A DNA stretch of 64,000 nt. It comes from a virus (lineage: Duplodnaviria > Heunggongvirae > Uroviricota > Caudoviricetes). Below, one piece after another: positions 3,440 through 28,346 of this stretch. The notes beneath the pieces were generated by a model. That model had not been told where the DNA came from, did no database searches, and worked only from the letters and a program-made list of their open reading frames with translations. The first letter of the stretch is position 1. Each line of letters opens with the position of its first letter. The position numbers were made by a program, and so were the translations under genes. Where the stretch lies: IMG/VR virus record IMGVR_UViG_3300021400_002728, positions 101,154-165,153 of that record; one strand, 5' to 3'.

Positions 3440-3569
3440 TCGAGAGAGTAGGATTCGAACCTACGATACGCTGTTTCCCTCAAATTTTTTGAAAGATTGC
3501 TGTCTCAATCACAATAATGATCACGAATAAATTTATATGACAGCTGCCTTACCACTTGGCTATCTCTCG
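3440..3569 (-). ncRNA. tRNA-like RNA with a long ACAGCAA-module insert in the anticodon loop
   Basis: Acceptor CGAGAGA/TCTCTCG, D arm GCCAAGTGGTAAGGC, T arm GTAGG-TTCGAAT-CCTAC, anticodon stem GCTGT/ACAGC enclosing ATCAT-TATT-GTGATTGAGACAGCAA; no assignable anticodon. Confidence 0.7.
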
Positions 3570-5470: not shown

Positions 5471-5908
5471 TTAAGAATATCTTTCCATTTCTCGCTTAAG
5501 ATCCTTCTCTTTAATGGATTGACGCTTGTCATAATTGTGTTTACCTCTACAGAAACCAATTAAGACTTTTACTTTACCATTTACCATATACATCTTTAAA
5601 GGAACAAGTGTAGTTCCATTGTCAATGAGCTTTCTTTCTAAGGATCTAATTTCCTGCTTATGCGCAAGTAATCGTCTAGGGCGTCTTTCAGAAATATCGA
5701 AATCCATCGCATTATCATACTTTGCAATATGAGAATTGAGCAGAATAAGTTCACCTTTATCTATCTGACAATAAGAATCTTTAAGATTACATGAACCTTT
5801 CTTAATAGACTTGATCTCATGGCCCTTGAGCTCTATTCCACACTCAAGTGTCTCAAGAACCGTATAATCAAAATATGCTTTTCTGTTTTCAATATTTACT
5901 GAATTCAT
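5471..5908 (-). CDS. smpB: SsrA-binding protein SmpB
   Basis: NRKAYFDY, GIELKGHEIKSI, RRLLAHKQEI, TLVPL, GKHNYDKR motifs. Confidence 0.97.
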   Translation of the reverse strand: MNSVNIENRKAYFDYTVLETLECGIELKGHEIKSIKKGSCNLKDSYCQIDKGELILLNSHIAKYDNAMDFDISERRPRRLLAHKQEIRSLERKLIDNGTTLVPLKMYMVNGKVKVLIGFCRGKHNYDKRQSIKEKDLKREMERYS

Positions 5909-9334: not shown

Positions 9335-9553
9335 TCGTCTATATAGACGATTAAATTTGTATTTCTTTAATTAAGGAACCGTCACTGCTATCTTTCACTC
9401 CTACGACGGTGCACCTAACAGGAGATGTAGCATTTACTGGCGTTCAATCTTTTACCGTTTACAACTTGCTCCAAGATTGAACCAAAGGCGGCTGGAGCCA
9501 TGAAACAAAACTTGTAATCCAAAATGATAAAAATGGCAGATTATCATTTTGCA

Positions 9554-17438: not shown

Positions 17439-17447
17439 ATATTTGAA

Positions 17448-17532
17448 GGACACATTGTTTACGGAATCGAACCGTTTATTCTGATTTGCAGTCAAAAATT
17501 TACCAAAATTAGAATATTTGCTGTGAGTGTCC
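17448..17532 (-). ncRNA. ACAGCAA-module RNA carrying D-like, Cys anticodon and T arms
   Basis: GGACAC-TCACAGCAA...TTTGA-CT GCA AA-TCAGA...ACGG-TTCGATT-CCGT...GTGTCC. Confidence 0.7.
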
Positions 17533-17536
17533 CAAG

Positions 17537-19262: not shown

Positions 19263-19325
19263 ATGACACTTTATTGGGTTTCAAATTAAAAGTTTGATCC
19301 ATAATAAAATTGCTGTATGTGTCAC
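19263..19325 (-). ncRNA. Free-standing ACAGCAA module presenting a Lys(UUU) anticodon stem-loop
   Basis: GTGACAC-ATACAGCAA-TTTTATT...TCAAA-CT TTT AA-TTTGA...AATAAA-GTGTCAT. Confidence 0.7.
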
Positions 19326-20826: not shown

Positions 20827-22290
20827 TTAAGCAGCTACTGTAACTGCTGCATAACGATCACTAAGGATCACATCGAGCATTGCTTCAAGAGGTGTCTTGT
20901 TAAGGCTCTGAATTACATTCTTGAATGTAGTTGCAGAATGTCCAGATACAAGCTGTACACCCTTATTAGTAGCATCTGCGTGGAAAGTATCAGACTCGCT
21001 GTTTACATTCCAGAATACTACGTTAGGAATCTTATATCCAGCGGCATCAAATGCCTTAGCATACTTCTCATAGAAGGTATCTGCACCATGTACGCTATAA
21101 GAATCAATCTGCATATCTGAAATTACAATGAGTGCTTCAGGTATCTCTTCAGCAGGAGTCTTATTAGCAATAGCAGTATCAAGGATAAGCTTGAATGCCG
21201 CGTCAAGATTAGTGTTATCATTGATAGTTCTGATATTTCTAATCTTATCAATAAGAGTTGCACCAGATACCTTAACTAAAGTAGGTCTTGAGCTAAAGGT
21301 CATGAAGTAACCTCCAAATGCACCCTTATTTCTCTCAGCAAAGTATAATGCGAGACCTACAGAAGATGCAATAGGAAGTCTATTGCAGCAAGTCATAGAT
21401 CCGGATGTATCAGCCATAACAAGAATATTCTTGTTAGGATCTACATAATCAGGAAGTGCCTTCCACTGAGCTTCAAGAACCTTACTATCTTCACCAAACA
21501 TGATCTTCTGAATGATGTCGTAAGGATAAAGTGTGCCGGCCTTAATCTCAACCTTACCAGAAGTTACATCTTCAAGGTACTTACTAAATCTATCCTTGTC
21601 CTTAAGACCGAAGAGCTTACGATACTTCATCATTGCGTTAGAAGGAATCTTATCATACGCAATAGTATCAAAGTTATTTGCAGAGACCTTAATCTCTACG
21701 ATGTCAAGGTACTTACGAAGAGCCTTAAGATCCTTCTTGAATGCCTTAACATTCTTATATCCGAGCTTCTGAGAAGTCAAGATACCCATCTTACGAGTTT
21801 CAGGAGATGAAGCATCAGGAGTCTTAATCCACTTAGCAAGAAGTGAAACAGGCTGATCCTTCTTCATATTCTTGACATCCATCTTGAACTGCTTCTTCAT
21901 TGCAGCCCACATCTCGTCTTCGCAGGCAGTTCCGACCAGACAATAGAGATCGTCGAATCTACCATAGAATCCAATTAATGGAATGTTAGGCGCGACGATC
22001 TCCTTGTGCTTATTTGCTGCATACGCAAGCAAAGTTCGGAAGGTCTCTCTTTCACCAAGTCCTTCTCTGATATCTCTACCATAGAAAAGGATCTTAGCGG
22101 CAAGCTCTTTGTTATCAGCGATTGCCTTCTCAAAGAGGTCAATCTTCCGATCAGAGTCTGCCTTTCTTAACGCGCCGATAGTTGAATATAAATCGACAAG
22201 TGCATTTCCTGAGGATTTCAGGCAAATGGCACCATTTTCCGTATAGGTAAATGATGTTGTTTCGCTGAGTTGTCTGTTCATCTTTGGCAT
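20827..22290 (-). CDS. DUF2828-family TROVE/Ro60-like protein with C-terminal vWA domain
   Basis: TENGA, RDIREGLGER, SLLAKWI, YDKIPS.AM, LYPYDI, MIDAS DTSGSM, ISDMQ, VFWNV motifs. Confidence 0.8.
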   Translation of the reverse strand: MPKMNRQLSETTSFTYTENGAICLKSSGNALVDLYSTIGALRKADSDRKIDLFEKAIADNKELAAKILFYGRDIREGLGERETFRTLLAYAANKHKEIVAPNIPLIGFYGRFDDLYCLVGTACEDEMWAAMKKQFKMDVKNMKKDQPVSLLAKWIKTPDASSPETRKMGILTSQKLGYKNVKAFKKDLKALRKYLDIVEIKVSANNFDTIAYDKIPSNAMMKYRKLFGLKDKDRFSKYLEDVTSGKVEIKAGTLYPYDIIQKIMFGEDSKVLEAQWKALPDYVDPNKNILVMADTSGSMTCCNRLPIASSVGLALYFAERNKGAFGGYFMTFSSRPTLVKVSGATLIDKIRNIRTINDNTNLDAAFKLILDTAIANKTPAEEIPEALIVISDMQIDSYSVHGADTFYEKYAKAFDAAGYKIPNVVFWNVNSESDTFHADATNKGVQLVSGHSATTFKNVIQSLNKTPLEAMLDVILSDRYAAVTVAA

Positions 22291-22416
22291 TTTACGTATC
22301 CTCCATAAAATTTGTTTTTGATTACCGATTGATTATGATGTAATTATATCATGTAATCATGCACTTGTAAATAGTTTCTTAAAAATTTTTCGATAAATTT
22401 TTTTTTCTTATCGAAA

Positions 22417-22490
22417 CGATCCCGATGGGACTCGAACCCACGACCTCCGCCGTGACAGGGCGGCGTTCTAACCAACTGAACTACGTGACC
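22417..22490 (-). tRNA. tRNA-Asp(GTC)
   Basis: CCGCC-CT GTC AC-GGCGG. Confidence 0.95.
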
Positions 22491-22495
22491 ATAAT

Positions 22496-23302
22496 ATGAT
22501 GCTGTAACTATATTCTTAATTCAAATGGAAAGAGTAAAGTTATAATAGTTTGCTGTAAGCATCACAATTTTGAGTCGTCCACTAAAGCAGGACCTCTCTA
22601 ATTAAAATGATTGACACGCTTTTCTTTGTAGGATTTTTTCGACAAGCGTTACACTCGATTTCCTAGTATACTCATTAGCTATACCAGACTGATGTCTAAT
22701 CAACACTTACGCGTTCATTTGACCACTATTAACATTTGATCTTGTTTGGTTTGCTGTAGTCAATCACAAAATGCAATTGTAAAGGTACAATACCTAAATG
22801 ACGAGAATAACAAGATAATTTTATGAAATTTTCTGTTGTTATTTTTATTGCTGTAATCGTCACAAGCAGGTAAGTTAATAAATGACTGACAAGGAATGTT
22901 TGATGGGATCTTTTGGTCATTACCTATGCTACACCATTTCCCGACATGTTAGGTACATGCCAACCTAATTTTTATTTACCCAAAAAATAAAATTAAGAAG
23001 ATTTGCAATTGTATTGCTGTTAAGTCAGTCACGACTTTGTAAAAATATGATTGTCACGGACTCTTCCTCGGATTTTCTGGTGGCATACCGCTCTTTACCA
23101 TTTCCGGATAGATCATTTGAATCGGATCTTTTGGCTGATACTATCATGTCTTCCATTTCCGAATAGGTCGTTAATCAGATTTTTTAGTGACCTATCAGTA
23201 TACATTTTCTGGATTGTTAAGCAATCAGCTTTTGCGCCTTTATCGCACACATACTGTTATCATCTCTTTAATATAAGAATGATTTGCTGTTAAGACAATC
23301 AC
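22496..23302 (-). repeat. Cluster of five ACAGCAA-module RNAs (22496-22565, 22687-22767, 22798-22863, 22957-23032, 23047-23302)
   Basis: Each starts GTGA(C/T)N2-6 then N2-ACAGCAA and closes on a complementary 3' strand, mostly ending (G/A)TCAT; interiors differ. Confidence 0.75.
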
Positions 23303-23340
23303 AAATTAAGTAATTTTTCTAAGACAGAAATATTACTTAG

Positions 23341-23413
23341 CTCCTCAAGTAGGACTCGAACCTACGACATCCCGGTTAACAGCCGGACGCTCTACCAACT
23401 GAGCTATTAAGGA
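23341..23413 (-). tRNA. tRNA-Asn(GTT)
   Basis: TCCGG-CT GTT AA-CCGGG. Confidence 0.95.
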
Positions 23414-23842: not shown

Positions 23843-24000
23843 ATGGAAAGTATTAGGTCTCGATCCCAACAAACTTGCCCATCTGCAAGTACTTTCCAGA
23901 GTATGAGGATAAATAATATTGGAGGTATTATAATCTTCATCATGTTTCAATGGCAAAGTAACCTCATACTCAATCATTAATTTTATATCCTTTCGGATAA

Positions 24001-24073
24001 TCGGAGTAGCGGGACTCGAACCCACGACTTCATGCTCCCAAAGCACGCGGTCTACCAACTGACCTATACCCCG
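24001..24073 (-). tRNA. tRNA-Pro(TGG)
   Basis: CGTGC-TT TGG GA-GCATG. Confidence 0.95.
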
Positions 24074-24075
24074 AG

Positions 24076-24959: not shown

Positions 24960-25018
24960 ATGACTCGTTATATTTTTCACCCAATTGAAAATTTTTAAGT
25001 GATTGCTGACTAAGTCAC
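24960..25018 (-). ncRNA. ACAGCAA-type module at the head of the RNA district
   Basis: GTGACT-TAGTCAGCAA...TTTTCA-ATTGGG-TGAAAA...AGTCAT. Confidence 0.55.
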
Positions 25019-25269: not shown

Positions 25270-26463
25270 TTAGTCTTTACGCACAGCCTTCATTTTTACT
25301 TTATTTTCATACATTTGAGCATCAGCGCGTACAAATACATCATGAAACGAAGTATCTCTTTCCGCTGAATATACAGCATATCCAGTTGCGGCAGAAATAT
25401 TTTCCCACTCATTAGATTTGCCAGTTTTAGTTATAGACGATCCTATATTAGTAAGTAAGAAACTAAGTACGTCTACATTCTTACCAGATATAATTACAGC
25501 AAATTCATCTCCACCTATTCTAAAGCAATTACAACCAGTAAACATTGATCGTATATCATCTGCTAAGATCTTAAGTGCAATATCGCCCTTATCATGACCA
25601 TAGGTATCATTCATCTTCTTTAAGAAGTTAAGATCTATTATAATAAGAGAGAATTTAGCTATACCATTCTTAATATCATCATTTAGTTTTTCTTCATATT
25701 TTTCAAATGCGTTACGATTAGATAGACCAGTCAACCCATCTATATACATAATTTGTTCAGCCTGTAGAGCTTTAGCGGTCCAATATATTGAAGATCCTAA
25801 TACTGAATATTCAGATATATAAATAAAACATATAATTAAAAATAGTGGTACAAATAACTTATTACCTGGTACTATATTAGCTGCATTTGCAATATAGGTT
25901 ATTGCAGAAAAACTAAATAAAGCTGAAATAGGTATAATTATATAGTTCTTTAACTGGCCATTTGATACTTTTAGCATGCCTTTAAACGGTCGTTTTATAA
26001 AGACTACAAATAAGGTTGATATTAAGCTAAGTACTATAAGTTTAACTGCAATAAAGAATAATATATTCTTAATAGTATATGGACCATTTACTGGGTCAAA
26101 TAAATTAAGTCTTGAACCAATTATCTGATCAGTTGTACCGCAAAACAAAAATGTACTTACTACAATTATAAGTGTTGTAGTGCAGTTAATAAATATATTA
26201 TGTGATAATGTTTCTTTGCATAATGCATGCCCAAGTATACAAAGTGCAACACAATATAATACTAATGGTATGGCATCATTCATTATAAAGAAGCTATACC
26301 AAAACATAGTTAACGCTAACAATATAAAAACTGATCCAAACCACAAAAATGCATGTGTTTTCTTTGAATACTTCGGAGTTGTAAGTACGGACGTAAGTAA
26401 AGATGCATATGTAAAATTTAATATGCTACTTAACGACCATAATATGACTATCGAAGTTTCCAT
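25270..26463 (-). CDS. Multi-TM diguanylate cyclase (GGDEF)
   Basis: About 7 TM helices then DGLTGLSNR, DLNFLKKMNDTYGHDKGD, RIGGDEF. Confidence 0.92.
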   Translation of the reverse strand: METSIVILWSLSSILNFTYASLLTSVLTTPKYSKKTHAFLWFGSVFILLALTMFWYSFFIMNDAIPLVLYCVALCILGHALCKETLSHNIFINCTTTLIIVVSTFLFCGTTDQIIGSRLNLFDPVNGPYTIKNILFFIAVKLIVLSLISTLFVVFIKRPFKGMLKVSNGQLKNYIIIPISALFSFSAITYIANAANIVPGNKLFVPLFLIICFIYISEYSVLGSSIYWTAKALQAEQIMYIDGLTGLSNRNAFEKYEEKLNDDIKNGIAKFSLIIIDLNFLKKMNDTYGHDKGDIALKILADDIRSMFTGCNCFRIGGDEFAVIISGKNVDVLSFLLTNIGSSITKTGKSNEWENISAATGYAVYSAERDTSFHDVFVRADAQMYENKVKMKAVRKD

Positions 26464-26480: not shown

Positions 26481-28346
26481 TTAACTTGCATTATGAGAGG
26501 ATAAGAAATTCAAGAAATCTTCCATAGGAAGTGGTTTTGAAAAATAATATCCCTGAATATACTCAATATTAAGATCTAACATGGCCTCAAGTTGTTCTCT
26601 AGTTTCGATTCCTTCTGAGACAATGTTAAGATTCATATTATGCATAGTATGAGTCATTCCCTCTAATACCTGTTTTACTTTTTTATTGTTGAAATAACCT
26701 TGAGTAAAACTATAATCAAACTTGATATTTTGTACAGGAAAATCAACAAGATAATCAAGATTTGATCGTCCTGTTCCAAAATCGTCTAATGAAAATGTTA
26801 TTCCCTGTTCAAGTAATTGATTTATGTTTTTAATAAGATTATTTCTACTTTTATTCTGTGCTGTCTCAGTAATTTCGAGATTTATCATAGATGGATCAAT
26901 ATTATATTTTTCAATCATATCAATAATAAATTTGGCTGGATTTTCAAAATCAAACTGAGCTGCAGATAAGTTTACTTCTATATTATTAAGACCTAGTTGC
27001 TTAGGATCATGCTCAGAAATAAACTGACACACTTTCTCAAATATTCTCATACCCAATGGAATAATTTGACCAGTTTCTTCAGAAATTGGAATAAATACTC
27101 CAGGTGGAGTAATACTACCGTCAAGATTTCTAATTCGTACTAATGCTTCAGCAGCAGAAAATTTATGTGTCTTTACATTATAAAAAGGTTGATAGAATAC
27201 TTCTACTCTATCATCATTAAGAGCGTCTTCAATGAGATCGTGAACCTGATTATATTTTCTCAAGTCTGCGATAACGTCTTCATTAACTTCAATTATTTCG
27301 TCCTTTAATGACTCATTCATTTGAATAAAATTAAAGAACTCTTCAGGATTAATGAAATCTAGTCCATTTGGAATAACTATATAATGTAAAGTGGTTAAGT
27401 CTTCTTTTGAATTAGACTTAATATCTTTAAACTTTTCTAAATGTGCCTTCATTCGATATTTGTCATTAAATGCAACAACAAATAAATCATCATCTAACTT
27501 AAATACTGGATCTGAACCTAAACTATTTAAGGCCTGTGATGCCATAAATCTAGCTTTATTCTTAAGTTCTATTTCAACCATTTGAGATAAGTAATTAAGC
27601 TTAACCACAAATGCTGAAAATGGTGTCTTAAACTTAAACTGATCATTTATGTAATTAGTAAAACCAATATAATTAAACGTATTAGTATAAGTATCTAAAT
27701 ATACATTTGGATTTTCTAACTGTGTATAAAGTATAATTACACTAAATGCAGACGCAAATCCAATTAAAAGAAGTTCGGGAACTATGAATTGAATCAACAC
27801 ACAAACAAGCCAAATACCTTGCCATGTCATTATAGTTCTAAACTTTTTATATGACATTTCTTTTCTTTTTATAATAGCTAAAGAAATTGTAGTTAAAATT
27901 AAAATGACAGCCAAGATATATGCTACTAGAGTAGATGCTCCGTATGAATATGCTTGTCTGCCATCCATGGCGTATGATATAGGCAATGCTAATATCATCA
28001 GTTCTCCGAACGTAAAAATTGCATGCAGTATTCGTTTTATATGTTTATATTTATCATTAATTAGTAATTCAGTCATTACATATACATATCCGAGATATCC
28101 TTGTAGGACTAATGAGAATATGTATAACTTACATACTAATTTGGTTATAAATGGACTAAATCCGCATTTTGTTGAATAATAAATGCAGATTACTGATACT
28201 ATATCTAGTACCAACATTGCGATACAACTATATAAGGATCGCATAAACAATATTCTATTTGTTAACTTCAGTTTCTTTTCTCGCATGAATAGTACGTATA
28301 TGACTAGTACTATAAATAGAGAACAGCACTGTAATTCAATATTCAT
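26481..28346 (-). CDS. Multi-TM EAL c-di-GMP phosphodiesterase with degenerate GGDEF domain
   Basis: FYQP, AEALVR, EVNLS, LEITE, DDFGTG, KFD, EGIE, QGYYFSKP. Confidence 0.92.
   Translation of the reverse strand: MNIELQCCSLFIVLVIYVLFMREKKLKLTNRILFMRSLYSCIAMLVLDIVSVICIYYSTKCGFSPFITKLVCKLYIFSLVLQGYLGYVYVMTELLINDKYKHIKRILHAIFTFGELMILALPISYAMDGRQAYSYGASTLVAYILAVILILTTISLAIIKRKEMSYKKFRTIMTWQGIWLVCVLIQFIVPELLLIGFASAFSVIILYTQLENPNVYLDTYTNTFNYIGFTNYINDQFKFKTPFSAFVVKLNYLSQMVEIELKNKARFMASQALNSLGSDPVFKLDDDLFVVAFNDKYRMKAHLEKFKDIKSNSKEDLTTLHYIVIPNGLDFINPEEFFNFIQMNESLKDEIIEVNEDVIADLRKYNQVHDLIEDALNDDRVEVFYQPFYNVKTHKFSAAEALVRIRNLDGSITPPGVFIPISEETGQIIPLGMRIFEKVCQFISEHDPKQLGLNNIEVNLSAAQFDFENPAKFIIDMIEKYNIDPSMINLEITETAQNKSRNNLIKNINQLLEQGITFSLDDFGTGRSNLDYLVDFPVQNIKFDYSFTQGYFNNKKVKQVLEGMTHTMHNMNLNIVSEGIETREQLEAMLDLNIEYIQGYYFSKPLPMEDFLNFLSSHNAS

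Follow-up and report, generated by a model that had tools for sequence, protein, structure and literature searches.

A candidate family of Y-RNA-like partner RNAs linked to Ro60-like DUF2828 proteins in phages

An RNA array next to a DUF2828 gene

The window analyzed here is a stretch of 64,000 nucleotides (nt), positions 101,154 to 165,153 of IMG/VR record IMGVR_UViG_3300021400_002728, from a 394-kb phage genome that has direct terminal repeats, a G+C content of 32% and nearly all of its genes on the minus strand. Our subject is an array of small RNA elements at 22496-23302 (minus strand) and the gene that follows it, which codes for a 487-residue protein of the DUF2828 family (20827-22290, minus strand). 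Ro60 and its Y RNAs form a classic RNA-protein particle, the bacterial and viral roles of which are poorly understood, and a preliminary description of the window had proposed that this array and gene are a comparable pair.

The array consists of five elements, E1 to E5 (256, 151, 66, 161 and 70 nt, respectively), which all start with GUGAY and end with RUCAU. These ends form a closing helix, here called P1, of 7-9 bp with a terminal G.U pair, the sequence of which varies from copy to copy (for example, GUGAUGCU/AGCAUCAU in E5 versus GUGACUGAC/GUCAGUCAU in E2). Directly 3' of the 5' strand of the helix is (U)UACAGCAA, which was single-stranded in minimum free energy folds. The preliminary description had claimed five elements sharing a GUGAY.../...RUCAU helix with an unpaired ACAGCAA, and all five were located where it had put them, on the minus strand. 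We refer to this combination of helix and adjoining single strand as the handle.

E1 (23047-23302), E2 (22882-23032) and E4 (22607-22767) are long free-standing handle RNAs, with P1 formed by GUGAUUGUC/GACAAUCAU (followed by UUAACAGCAA) in E1 and by GUGAUUGAC/GUCAAUCAU in E4; E2 also displays a UUUGGGU loop. E3 (22798-22863) and E5 (22496-22565) are minimal. In E3, P1 is GUGACGA/UCGUCAU and UUUCAUAAA is positioned on an inner hairpin; its 3' end was assigned by manual reading, the automated scanner having chosen a wrong partner strand. A canonical tRNA-Asp(GUC) (22416-22491, minus strand) begins 4 nt past E5 and lies between the array and the DUF2828 gene, the start of which (22290) is 206 nt from the end of E5; a distance of about 200 bp had been noted before. 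Between this tRNA and the gene start is a sigma-70-like promoter match, TTTACA-17-TATAAT with the TG of an extended -10 element (11/12; 22343-22371, minus strand). The gene may therefore be transcribed apart from the RNA array, although the number of promoter-like sites in the region overall was not above chance.

The three long RNAs contain a second module, GGAAAUGG-hairpin-CCARAAAUCC, which occurs twice in E1, once in E2 and once, as a UCG/CGA variant, in E4 (minus-strand starts at 23160, 23105, 22942 and 22663). It is composed of two short helices that flank an asymmetric A-rich internal loop. No further copy was found in the 394-kb genome, and the module is thus confined to these three RNAs. 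It was retained with compensatory changes in related phages (loci L001-L003), and one copy was detected in a distant phage (L010:9904). A k-turn-like reading suits some copies, but not all. This module could serve as a docking site for a second factor.

Copies of the handle in the phage genome

The bare word ACAGCAA is unremarkable in this genome (16 copies versus 9 expected). The pattern G[UG]GAY-N2-10-ACAGCAA was found in 10 copies in the 394 kb, all on one strand and within a 20-kb tRNA island; approximately 0.8 copies would be expected genome-wide by chance, as estimated from base composition. When criteria were relaxed, the window yielded 12 handles, 8 of them free-standing and 4 within tRNA bodies, so that the earlier figure of at least 14 copies was not reached; a partial match at 28.5 kb proved weak. 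A loose handle scanner was noisy (40 observed versus ~16 chance matches per genome), and counts were restricted to clustered, strict-motif copies.

Outside the array, free handle RNAs are located on the minus strand at 24960-25018 (59 nt, with the motif variant UCAGCAA), at 19263-19325 (63 nt, beginning 4 nt past a tRNA-Arg and carrying an apical loop, CUUUUAA, of the tRNA-Lys(UUU) type) and at 17447-17533 (87 nt, P1 GGGACAC/GUGUCCU). The last of these has a tRNA-like core with a UGG, an anticodon-type loop CUGCAAA and a T arm. The handles inside tRNA bodies occur as a hairpin, RUCAU-tetraloop-GUGAY-NN-ACAGCAA (ACAGCUA in one copy), which is related to the free form by circular permutation and retains its helix and single strand.

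Four tRNA bodies, all on the minus strand, are tagged in this way. In a tRNA-Asp(GUC)-type body (11679-11802) the handle hairpin (11765-11739) is located in the 5' strand of the anticodon stem, and in a tRNA-Pro(UGG)-type body (11554-11676) it is inserted between nt 29 and 30 (11635-11611). These bodies duplicate the canonical tRNA-Asp of the array region and a canonical tRNA-Pro (24000-24074), respectively, and excision of the insert gives back a canonical anticodon arm in both, with C37 as a flaw in the Asp copy. The hairpin at 12189-12215 (GAAUCAU-UUUC-GUGAUUU, then ACAGCUA) is within a tRNA-like body at about 12233-12127, and the fourth (3523-3497) is within a 58-64 nt insertion in a tRNA body at 3440-3569; U33 is missing from the anticodon loops of these two bodies. 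The flawed anticodon loops of several tagged bodies favor the idea that they are mimics rather than decoders awaiting splicing. A third topology, in which the handle hairpin takes the place of the whole anticodon arm, was observed in relatives only. The window thus stands out for the size and variety of its set, which comprises 12 handles in two topologies, four tagged tRNA bodies and three long RNAs that also contain the second conserved module. A long structured stretch was also seen at 11833-12127, between two of the tagged bodies.

Predicted fold of the DUF2828 protein

Pfam searches with the 487-residue protein detected DUF2828, DUF7788 and a weak VWA_2 match, and no match to TROVE (PF05731); phmmer searches against PDB found no Ro60. 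We then examined its predicted structure. An AlphaFold2 model built from 44 homologues had a predicted local distance difference score (pLDDT) of 91 and a predicted template modeling score (pTM) of 0.90. In a Foldseek search of PDB with this model, the 13 best matches were all Ro60 or TROVE structures, aligned over the full length except for an isolated TROVE-domain entry. The top matches (1yvr, 2i91, 1yvp, 2nvo and 9l5y) covered residues 13-474 with template modeling (TM) scores of 0.45-0.62 and E values of 1e-8 to 4e-5, and the matches span frog and human Ro60, Deinococcus Rsr and the Ro60 of Thermus phage phiLo. Among Swiss-Prot models, Ro60 was again best, followed by telomerase p80. In addition, the metal ion-dependent adhesion site (MIDAS) residues D294, S296, S298, T360 and D392 were invariant in the 44 sequences.

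The protein is thus predicted to be Ro60-like in fold over its full length, with a ring of helical repeats and a C-terminal vWA domain, and the TROVE/Ro60-like label originally attached to the gene is supported by predicted fold and not by sequence. Such a reading of the family is not new, as its members are labeled "RNA-binding protein" in PHROGs and "Ro-like RNA binding protein" by mycobacteriophage annotators. The family is very large: there are over 6500 close proteins, the number of clusters at 50% identity is 8561, and 709 records come from cultured phages. Clusters in a protein atlas were viral only, and a search for longer homologues, aimed at eukaryotic forms, found only a RecQ-DUF2828 fusion. 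This natural fusion (P0271, 1148 residues, JGI metagenome) joins DUF2828/DUF7788 to a RecQ-family helicase with DEAD, Helicase_C, RQC and HRDC domains.

Linkage of handle RNAs to DUF2828 genes

In relatives with 80% protein identity the array was kept, with a different set of elements. More distant relatives also had handles before the gene. A 532-kb phage (56% identity) has one, 220 nt before its DUF2828 gene. A small phage with an SPP1-type portal (53%) has approximately seven in the 1.2 kb before the gene, together with the hairpin form in five tRNA-like bodies, one of which has the variant AAUCAGCAA. In a 154-kb contig (53%; L010) the gene is preceded by a free handle and by consecutive repeats of the hairpin form, the motif variants of which include CUGCAA and CCGCAA; no tRNA was predicted by ARAGORN near these handles in 21 kb.

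To extend the comparison, we retrieved IMG/VR loci with a protein alignment as the query (a single-protein query returned none). This yielded 80 loci, in which handle matches were concentrated in the 1.5 kb upstream of the gene and shared its strand; the opposite strand had almost no matches. A second sample comprised 80 loci from different species-level genomes, mostly of Lachnospiraceae. In this sample, the 500-nt bin immediately before the DUF2828 gene contained 97 matches versus 0-3 in most other same-strand bins, and at least one handle was found within 2 kb upstream in 59 of the 80 genomes. The single other exception was a bin inside the gene with 22 matches, which we read as a match to conserved coding sequence. 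In the clade of 50-54% identity, a conserved match to the loose handle pattern, GGGAUUAAAACAGCAA, occurs 500-1000 nt into the DUF2828 gene in both samples (L011-L090 and L091-L170; also at L010:10523), where it encodes part of the conserved stretch GI(K/L)TAxK. It is absent from the window's DUF2828 gene and probably arises by coincidence, from the conservation of this peptide.

When IMG/VR was searched for one subclass of the RNAs with a strict pattern, there was a single match, directly before a DUF2828 gene and behind two further handles. A scan of 301 genomes from a single bacterial family with strict full-length patterns yielded 2 true matches and ~6 at chance level, but it was underpowered because P1 varies.

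We also tested 11 lineages of cultured phages, the proteins of which are 27-40% identical. Handles were detected beside the gene in 8 of the 11: coliphages mistaenkt and Bas63, mycobacteriophage Gabriela, Listeria phage LP-048 (Pecentumvirus), Campylobacter phage F357, Bacillus phage Izhevsk, a Staphylococcus phage and a Fusobacterium phage. In a Vibrio phage the handle was doubtful. Across these lineages ACAGCAA is constant and the helix is lineage-specific (AGACC..., UGGAC..., UAGGAA... and AAGACAC...). In Bas63, mistaenkt, Gabriela and the Staphylococcus phage, the handles lie downstream of the gene. The co-occurrence of motif and gene, which the preliminary description had proposed to test across genomes, is therefore borne out in very different phages; the two share a strand, and most handles lie no more than 500 nt from the gene.

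Many handle RNAs are at present unannotated or listed as tiny hypothetical open reading frames (ORFs). For example, bas63_0137 and bas63_0138, on the opposite strand (L179:3249-3523, from MZ501086.1), and CoNPh4_CDS0145 and CoNPh4_CDS0144 of Staphylococcus phage S-CoN_Ph4 (L181:3971-4318) are small "hypothetical protein" ORFs that overlap handle RNAs. These ORFs are probably mis-annotations.

Conserved structure and variable parts of the RNAs

We examined 96 distinct motif sites upstream of DUF2828 genes for a partner strand. A partner of at least 7 bp within 130 nt was present for 77% of the sites, as compared with 10% after the downstream sequence was shuffled. In P1, pair 1 was G.U in 73 of 74 cases, pair 2 was U-A (48) or G-C (24), pair 3 was G-C, pair 4 was A-U, pair 5 was C-G or U-A, and at pair 6 all four Watson-Crick types occurred; the U of the 3' strand nearly always precedes a G. 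These changes are compensatory and of the kind expected for a conserved helix. RNAalifold applied to a MAFFT alignment recovered the T arm only, because the 3' strands of P1 were misaligned; P1 was therefore assessed by the above comparison of partner strands in real and shuffled sequence.

The gene-proximal RNAs of 78-104 nt (24 aligned) form a recognizable class, with invariant G1, G3, A4, C5, CAGCAA, a UGG that resembles G18-G19 of the D loop, and a T arm, GGUUCRANYCC. The window RNA at 17533-17447 is a member of this class. Anticodon-type arms could be seen by eye in several of the 24 RNAs, but did not align as a conserved feature. The shorter RNAs consist of an extended hairpin only, often with a seven-base CU-NNN-AA loop at the tip. 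A CU-NNN-A[AC] loop on at least 3 bp was present in 30 of 79 RNAs versus 2.2% in shuffles, a 17-fold enrichment, and the triplets displayed are diverse (GUU, GCA, GUA, UUU, GUC, CAU and others). The anticodon-type loops claimed in the preliminary description thus hold up, with CUUUUAA at 19325-19263 and CUGCAAA at 17533-17447 as examples in the window.

Two other readings of the element were considered and dropped. A promoter does not account for a distant partner strand that covaries. The G.U at position 1, adjoining tRNA ends, had suggested a self-cleaving ribozyme (HDV-like, "theta" or hatchet type); permissive Rfam searches of the array and of four cultured-phage loci gave no ribozyme match, and such folds are unlikely because the short elements stop at P1 and leave no room for the additional helices that these folds require.

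Comparison with known RNA families

No family matching the handle was detected in Rfam 15, and we found no paper that describes it. At gathering thresholds, the matches in the window and four related loci were confined to tRNA and tmRNA, apart from a group II intron in one of the relatives. This intron (domains 1-4 and the 3' catalytic part; L004:297-891) is located in the 532-kb phage beside a DNA polymerase A gene.

Y RNAs are bound by Ro60 at a conserved helix close to where their ends pair. The YrlA RNAs of bacteria and phages have a tRNA-like domain in addition, and their genes are on the same strand as that of Ro60 and no more than 4 kb from it (Chen et al. 2014, PMC4201824). Several features of the system described here are similar. 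A ring protein with a vWA domain is accompanied by small RNAs encoded on the same strand within a few kb. A stem joins the two ends of the RNA, as in YrlA, and is the presumed binding site in handle RNAs. A second module mimics tRNA (T arm, D-loop GG); at least one RNA of the window's genome, that at 17533-17447, contains such a domain. RNA-repair genes (RtcB, RNA ligases) are also located nearby. In contrast to Ro60, the protein matches Pfam DUF2828/DUF7788 and not TROVE, and it retrieved no Ro60 from PDB by sequence. In contrast to Y RNA and YrlA, the RNAs lack GNCGAAN0-1G, and their conserved element is a single-stranded ACAGCAA beside the helix; they also occur in many copies per genome (12 here), with the handle grafted into whole tRNAs as well. 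Neither Y_RNA nor YrlA of Rfam matched at E<=10 in 22480-23345 or at E<=0.5 in four cultured-phage loci, in agreement with the earlier statement that the motif is not that of YrlA.

The best sub-threshold Rfam match in the array was to RF01414 (22 bits versus a cut-off of 41.5, E 0.2). Genome-wide, the best score of this model was 16.5 bits, with control genomes also matching, and the four cultured-phage loci gave no match at E<=0.5. RF01414 represents the Class I RNAs, in which a 6-bp terminal stem and a conserved 5' G are combined with an unpaired CCUUACAGCAA that adjoins the 5' strand (Kjellin et al. 2021, PMC7919456). They have been reported from Dictyostelia only, are transcribed from a DUSE promoter and have the RRM (RNA recognition motif) protein Rnp1A as their known binder; their function is unknown (PMC7919456). 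The two kinds of RNA resemble each other in the short stem that joins their ends, in the conserved G at the 5' end and in size (~60 nt); in both, the rest of the molecule is variable and the genes are present in many copies. Moreover, C6, C9, A10 and A11 are constant both in CCUUACAGCAA and in the phage (U)UACAGCAA, with 7-9 of 11 letters in agreement. However, the stem sequences differ, the RF01414 model fails on the phage RNAs (16.5-22 bits versus 41.5), and the handle RNAs are phage and bacterial sequences, whereas the Class I RNAs have a DUSE promoter and occur in Dictyostelia.

Because the motif is so short, homology with Class I RNAs is not separable from convergence, and we treat the likeness, which is architecturally striking, as a lead only. 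AlphaFold DB clusters include proteins named DUF7788 and DUF2828, and we take many of these to be eukaryotic, judging from their accessions and one "Plant/T31B5-30" name. It would be surprising if the ACAGCAA-handle RNAs and dictyostelid Class I RNAs proved to be one family, by descent or transfer, built to dock on Ro60-like proteins of the DUF2828 type. If they did, there would be a candidate protein partner, and a mode of action resembling that of Ro and Y RNA, for a class of amoebal RNAs that is abundant and important in development.

Proposed role of the handle RNAs and alternative explanations

We are highly confident that the handle RNAs are real, structured and genetically linked to DUF2828. 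It is also probable, with considerably more room for doubt, that they are small non-coding partner RNAs of the Ro60-like DUF2828 protein, a Y-RNA-like family absent from Rfam, with tRNA-mimicking variable parts. Each RNA combines a constant handle with a variable cargo. The handle is a terminal helix (first pairs G.U, N-N', G-C, A-U and Y-R in the window's phage group) followed by the single-stranded (U)UACAGCAA, and the cargo ranges from a single anticodon-type hairpin to a near-complete tRNA-like core; whole tRNA bodies also carry the handle, closed by a tetraloop, within their anticodon stem. By analogy with Ro60 and Y RNA, the handle may well be the binding site of the protein, the ring of which would contact the helix and ACAGCAA. 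The cargo could then recruit or retain tRNA-binding factors, either tRNA-cutting host nucleases or the phage RNA ligase and phosphoesterases, while the vWA-MIDAS face might hold a protein partner. The net role, on the same analogy, may be counter-defense in conflicts over tRNA or RNA integrity. A specific role of the cargo as a decoy, for example for anticodon nucleases, and a specific role as a repair scaffold both fit the evidence, but each by itself is doubtful.

One member of the protein family has been studied experimentally. Gp130 of Bas63 (Escherichia phage JohannRWettstein) is required for normal plaques on Ppl-defended hosts and is a published anti-Ppl counter-defense factor (10.1101/2024.10.10.617714). 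Its gene, bas63_0130, codes for a DUF2828 protein (PF11443 match, 70 bits) and, like the gene in the window, is directly beside a tRNA array; homologues of the Felix O1 type are ~35% identical to the window protein. The authors of that preprint remarked on the Ro60-like fold of gp130 and guessed that some of the neighboring "tRNAs" were Y RNAs (10.1101/2024.10.10.617714). Their study identified no RNA partner; in the present analysis, three handle RNAs were located 0.5-1.2 kb downstream of gp130 (approximately 82240-82296, 82694-82761 and 82781-82906 of MZ501086.1), between annotated tRNAs and partly under annotated mini-ORFs.

Several observations weigh against a partnership of these RNAs with the protein. 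Gp130 expressed alone rescues T7 on Ppl, without any Bas63 RNA (10.1101/2024.10.10.617714), so that the RNAs are dispensable for at least the anti-Ppl activity; they may tune or redirect the protein rather than serve every activity. By the criteria used, no handle was found in 21 of the 80 species-level loci, nor within 2.5 kb of the gene in Acinetobacter phage ME3 and Xanthomonas phage XaC1. The species-level loci are mostly (pro)phages of Lachnospiraceae and are not fully independent. Finally, many handles are located in the leader of the gene, which is also compatible with a cis-regulatory role.

The last point leads to an explanation that we regard as unlikely, namely that the handles are cis-acting leader or processing elements, such as an autoregulatory DUF2828 5' untranslated region or punctuation of tRNA-operon transcripts, and not stable trans-acting RNAs. 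Most loci of the Lachnospiraceae type have one or two handles within 250 nt of the start codon, the last handle stops 10-15 nt before the ribosome-binding site, and handles of the window abut tRNA ends at 19325, 17533 and 22496. An element of this kind, however, would not be expected inside tRNA bodies or at distances of as much as 19 kb from the gene, both of which are seen in the window, or downstream of the gene, as in Bas63, mistaenkt, Gabriela and the Staphylococcus phage; diverse tRNA-like cargo would be superfluous for a simple operator, and in the window the promoter-like site separates the array from the gene. The same elements could be viewed as mobile. The handle is found at about the same place of the anticodon arm in four tRNA bodies, where ARAGORN and Rfam read inserts of 34-64 nt, an RNA ligase is encoded in the tRNA island, and array composition varies between 80%-related phages, which implies that elements are gained and lost. 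Handle inserts might accordingly be a new tRNA intron or mobile RNA cassette excised by the phage RNA ligase and an unknown nuclease, with DUF2828 a chaperone at most. We find this improbable, since the majority of copies are free-standing and outside tRNAs, the tagged Asp and Pro bodies have canonical counterparts in the same array, several tagged bodies have defective anticodon loops (C37 in that of the Asp type; U33 missing at 12233-12127 and 3440-3569), and in some relatives the handle hairpin replaces the entire anticodon arm, so that nothing would be left to splice back.

A repeat family without RNA function, whether a DNA-level repeat, a promoter for a phage RNA polymerase or a recombination site, is the least credible of these explanations. 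It is suggested by the 5' part, UUGUGAY...ACAGCAA, which is a conserved one-strand DNA word. Yet the 5' strand and its distant 3' partner covary over 59-256 nt, and these compensatory changes disfavor it; moreover, two circularly permuted topologies preserve the same helix, and the element recurs in phages without a phage-RNA-polymerase context.

If the handle RNAs are indeed partners of the DUF2828 protein, a second, much larger and unstudied branch of Ro60-like proteins appears to own a partner RNA family with a simple, searchable handle. Tractable phages have the system, including Bas63 and other coliphages of the Felix O1 type as well as Listeria (Pecentumvirus), Bacillus and Staphylococcus phages; together with the one counter-defense phenotype, this makes the role of the RNAs directly testable. 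The display of anticodon arms, T arms and whole tRNA bodies points to the tRNA arms race of anticodon nucleases and tRNA repair. Handle RNAs may also offer a natural scaffold for presenting pieces of RNA.

Other genes of the locus

The tRNA island extends from 3.4 to 24 kb and contains 40 ARAGORN predictions, among them a tmRNA and a UUA suppressor tRNA. Its protein-coding genes include those for SmpB, an RNA ligase, Metallophos and HD phosphoesterases and a YkuK-type RNase H-like protein. The RNA ligase (PF09414; 17834-18478, minus strand) provides an RNA-repair context and is a candidate association only. Genes of the RNA-repair type were also found 1-3 kb from the DUF2828 gene in unrelated phages, in Listeria LP-048 (L173:6116-8063), Bacillus Izhevsk (L180:4501-5742) and the 154-kb contig (L010:12790-13230). 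The repair-type genes near DUF2828 code for an RtcB ligase together with a metal-dependent phosphohydrolase, for a metallophosphatase and for a KTI12/AAA_33-type kinase; RtcB is encoded near the DUF2828 gene of the Listeria phage.

SmpB, the tmRNA (tag ANNVQMAA) and the ochre-suppressor-type tRNA (UUA) are located inside the island at 5471-5908, 9551-9912 and 13126-13197, respectively. Just upstream of the island are neighboring GGDEF (diguanylate cyclase, 25270-26463) and EAL (phosphodiesterase, 26481-28346) genes, which were kept in the 80%-related phages L002 and L003.

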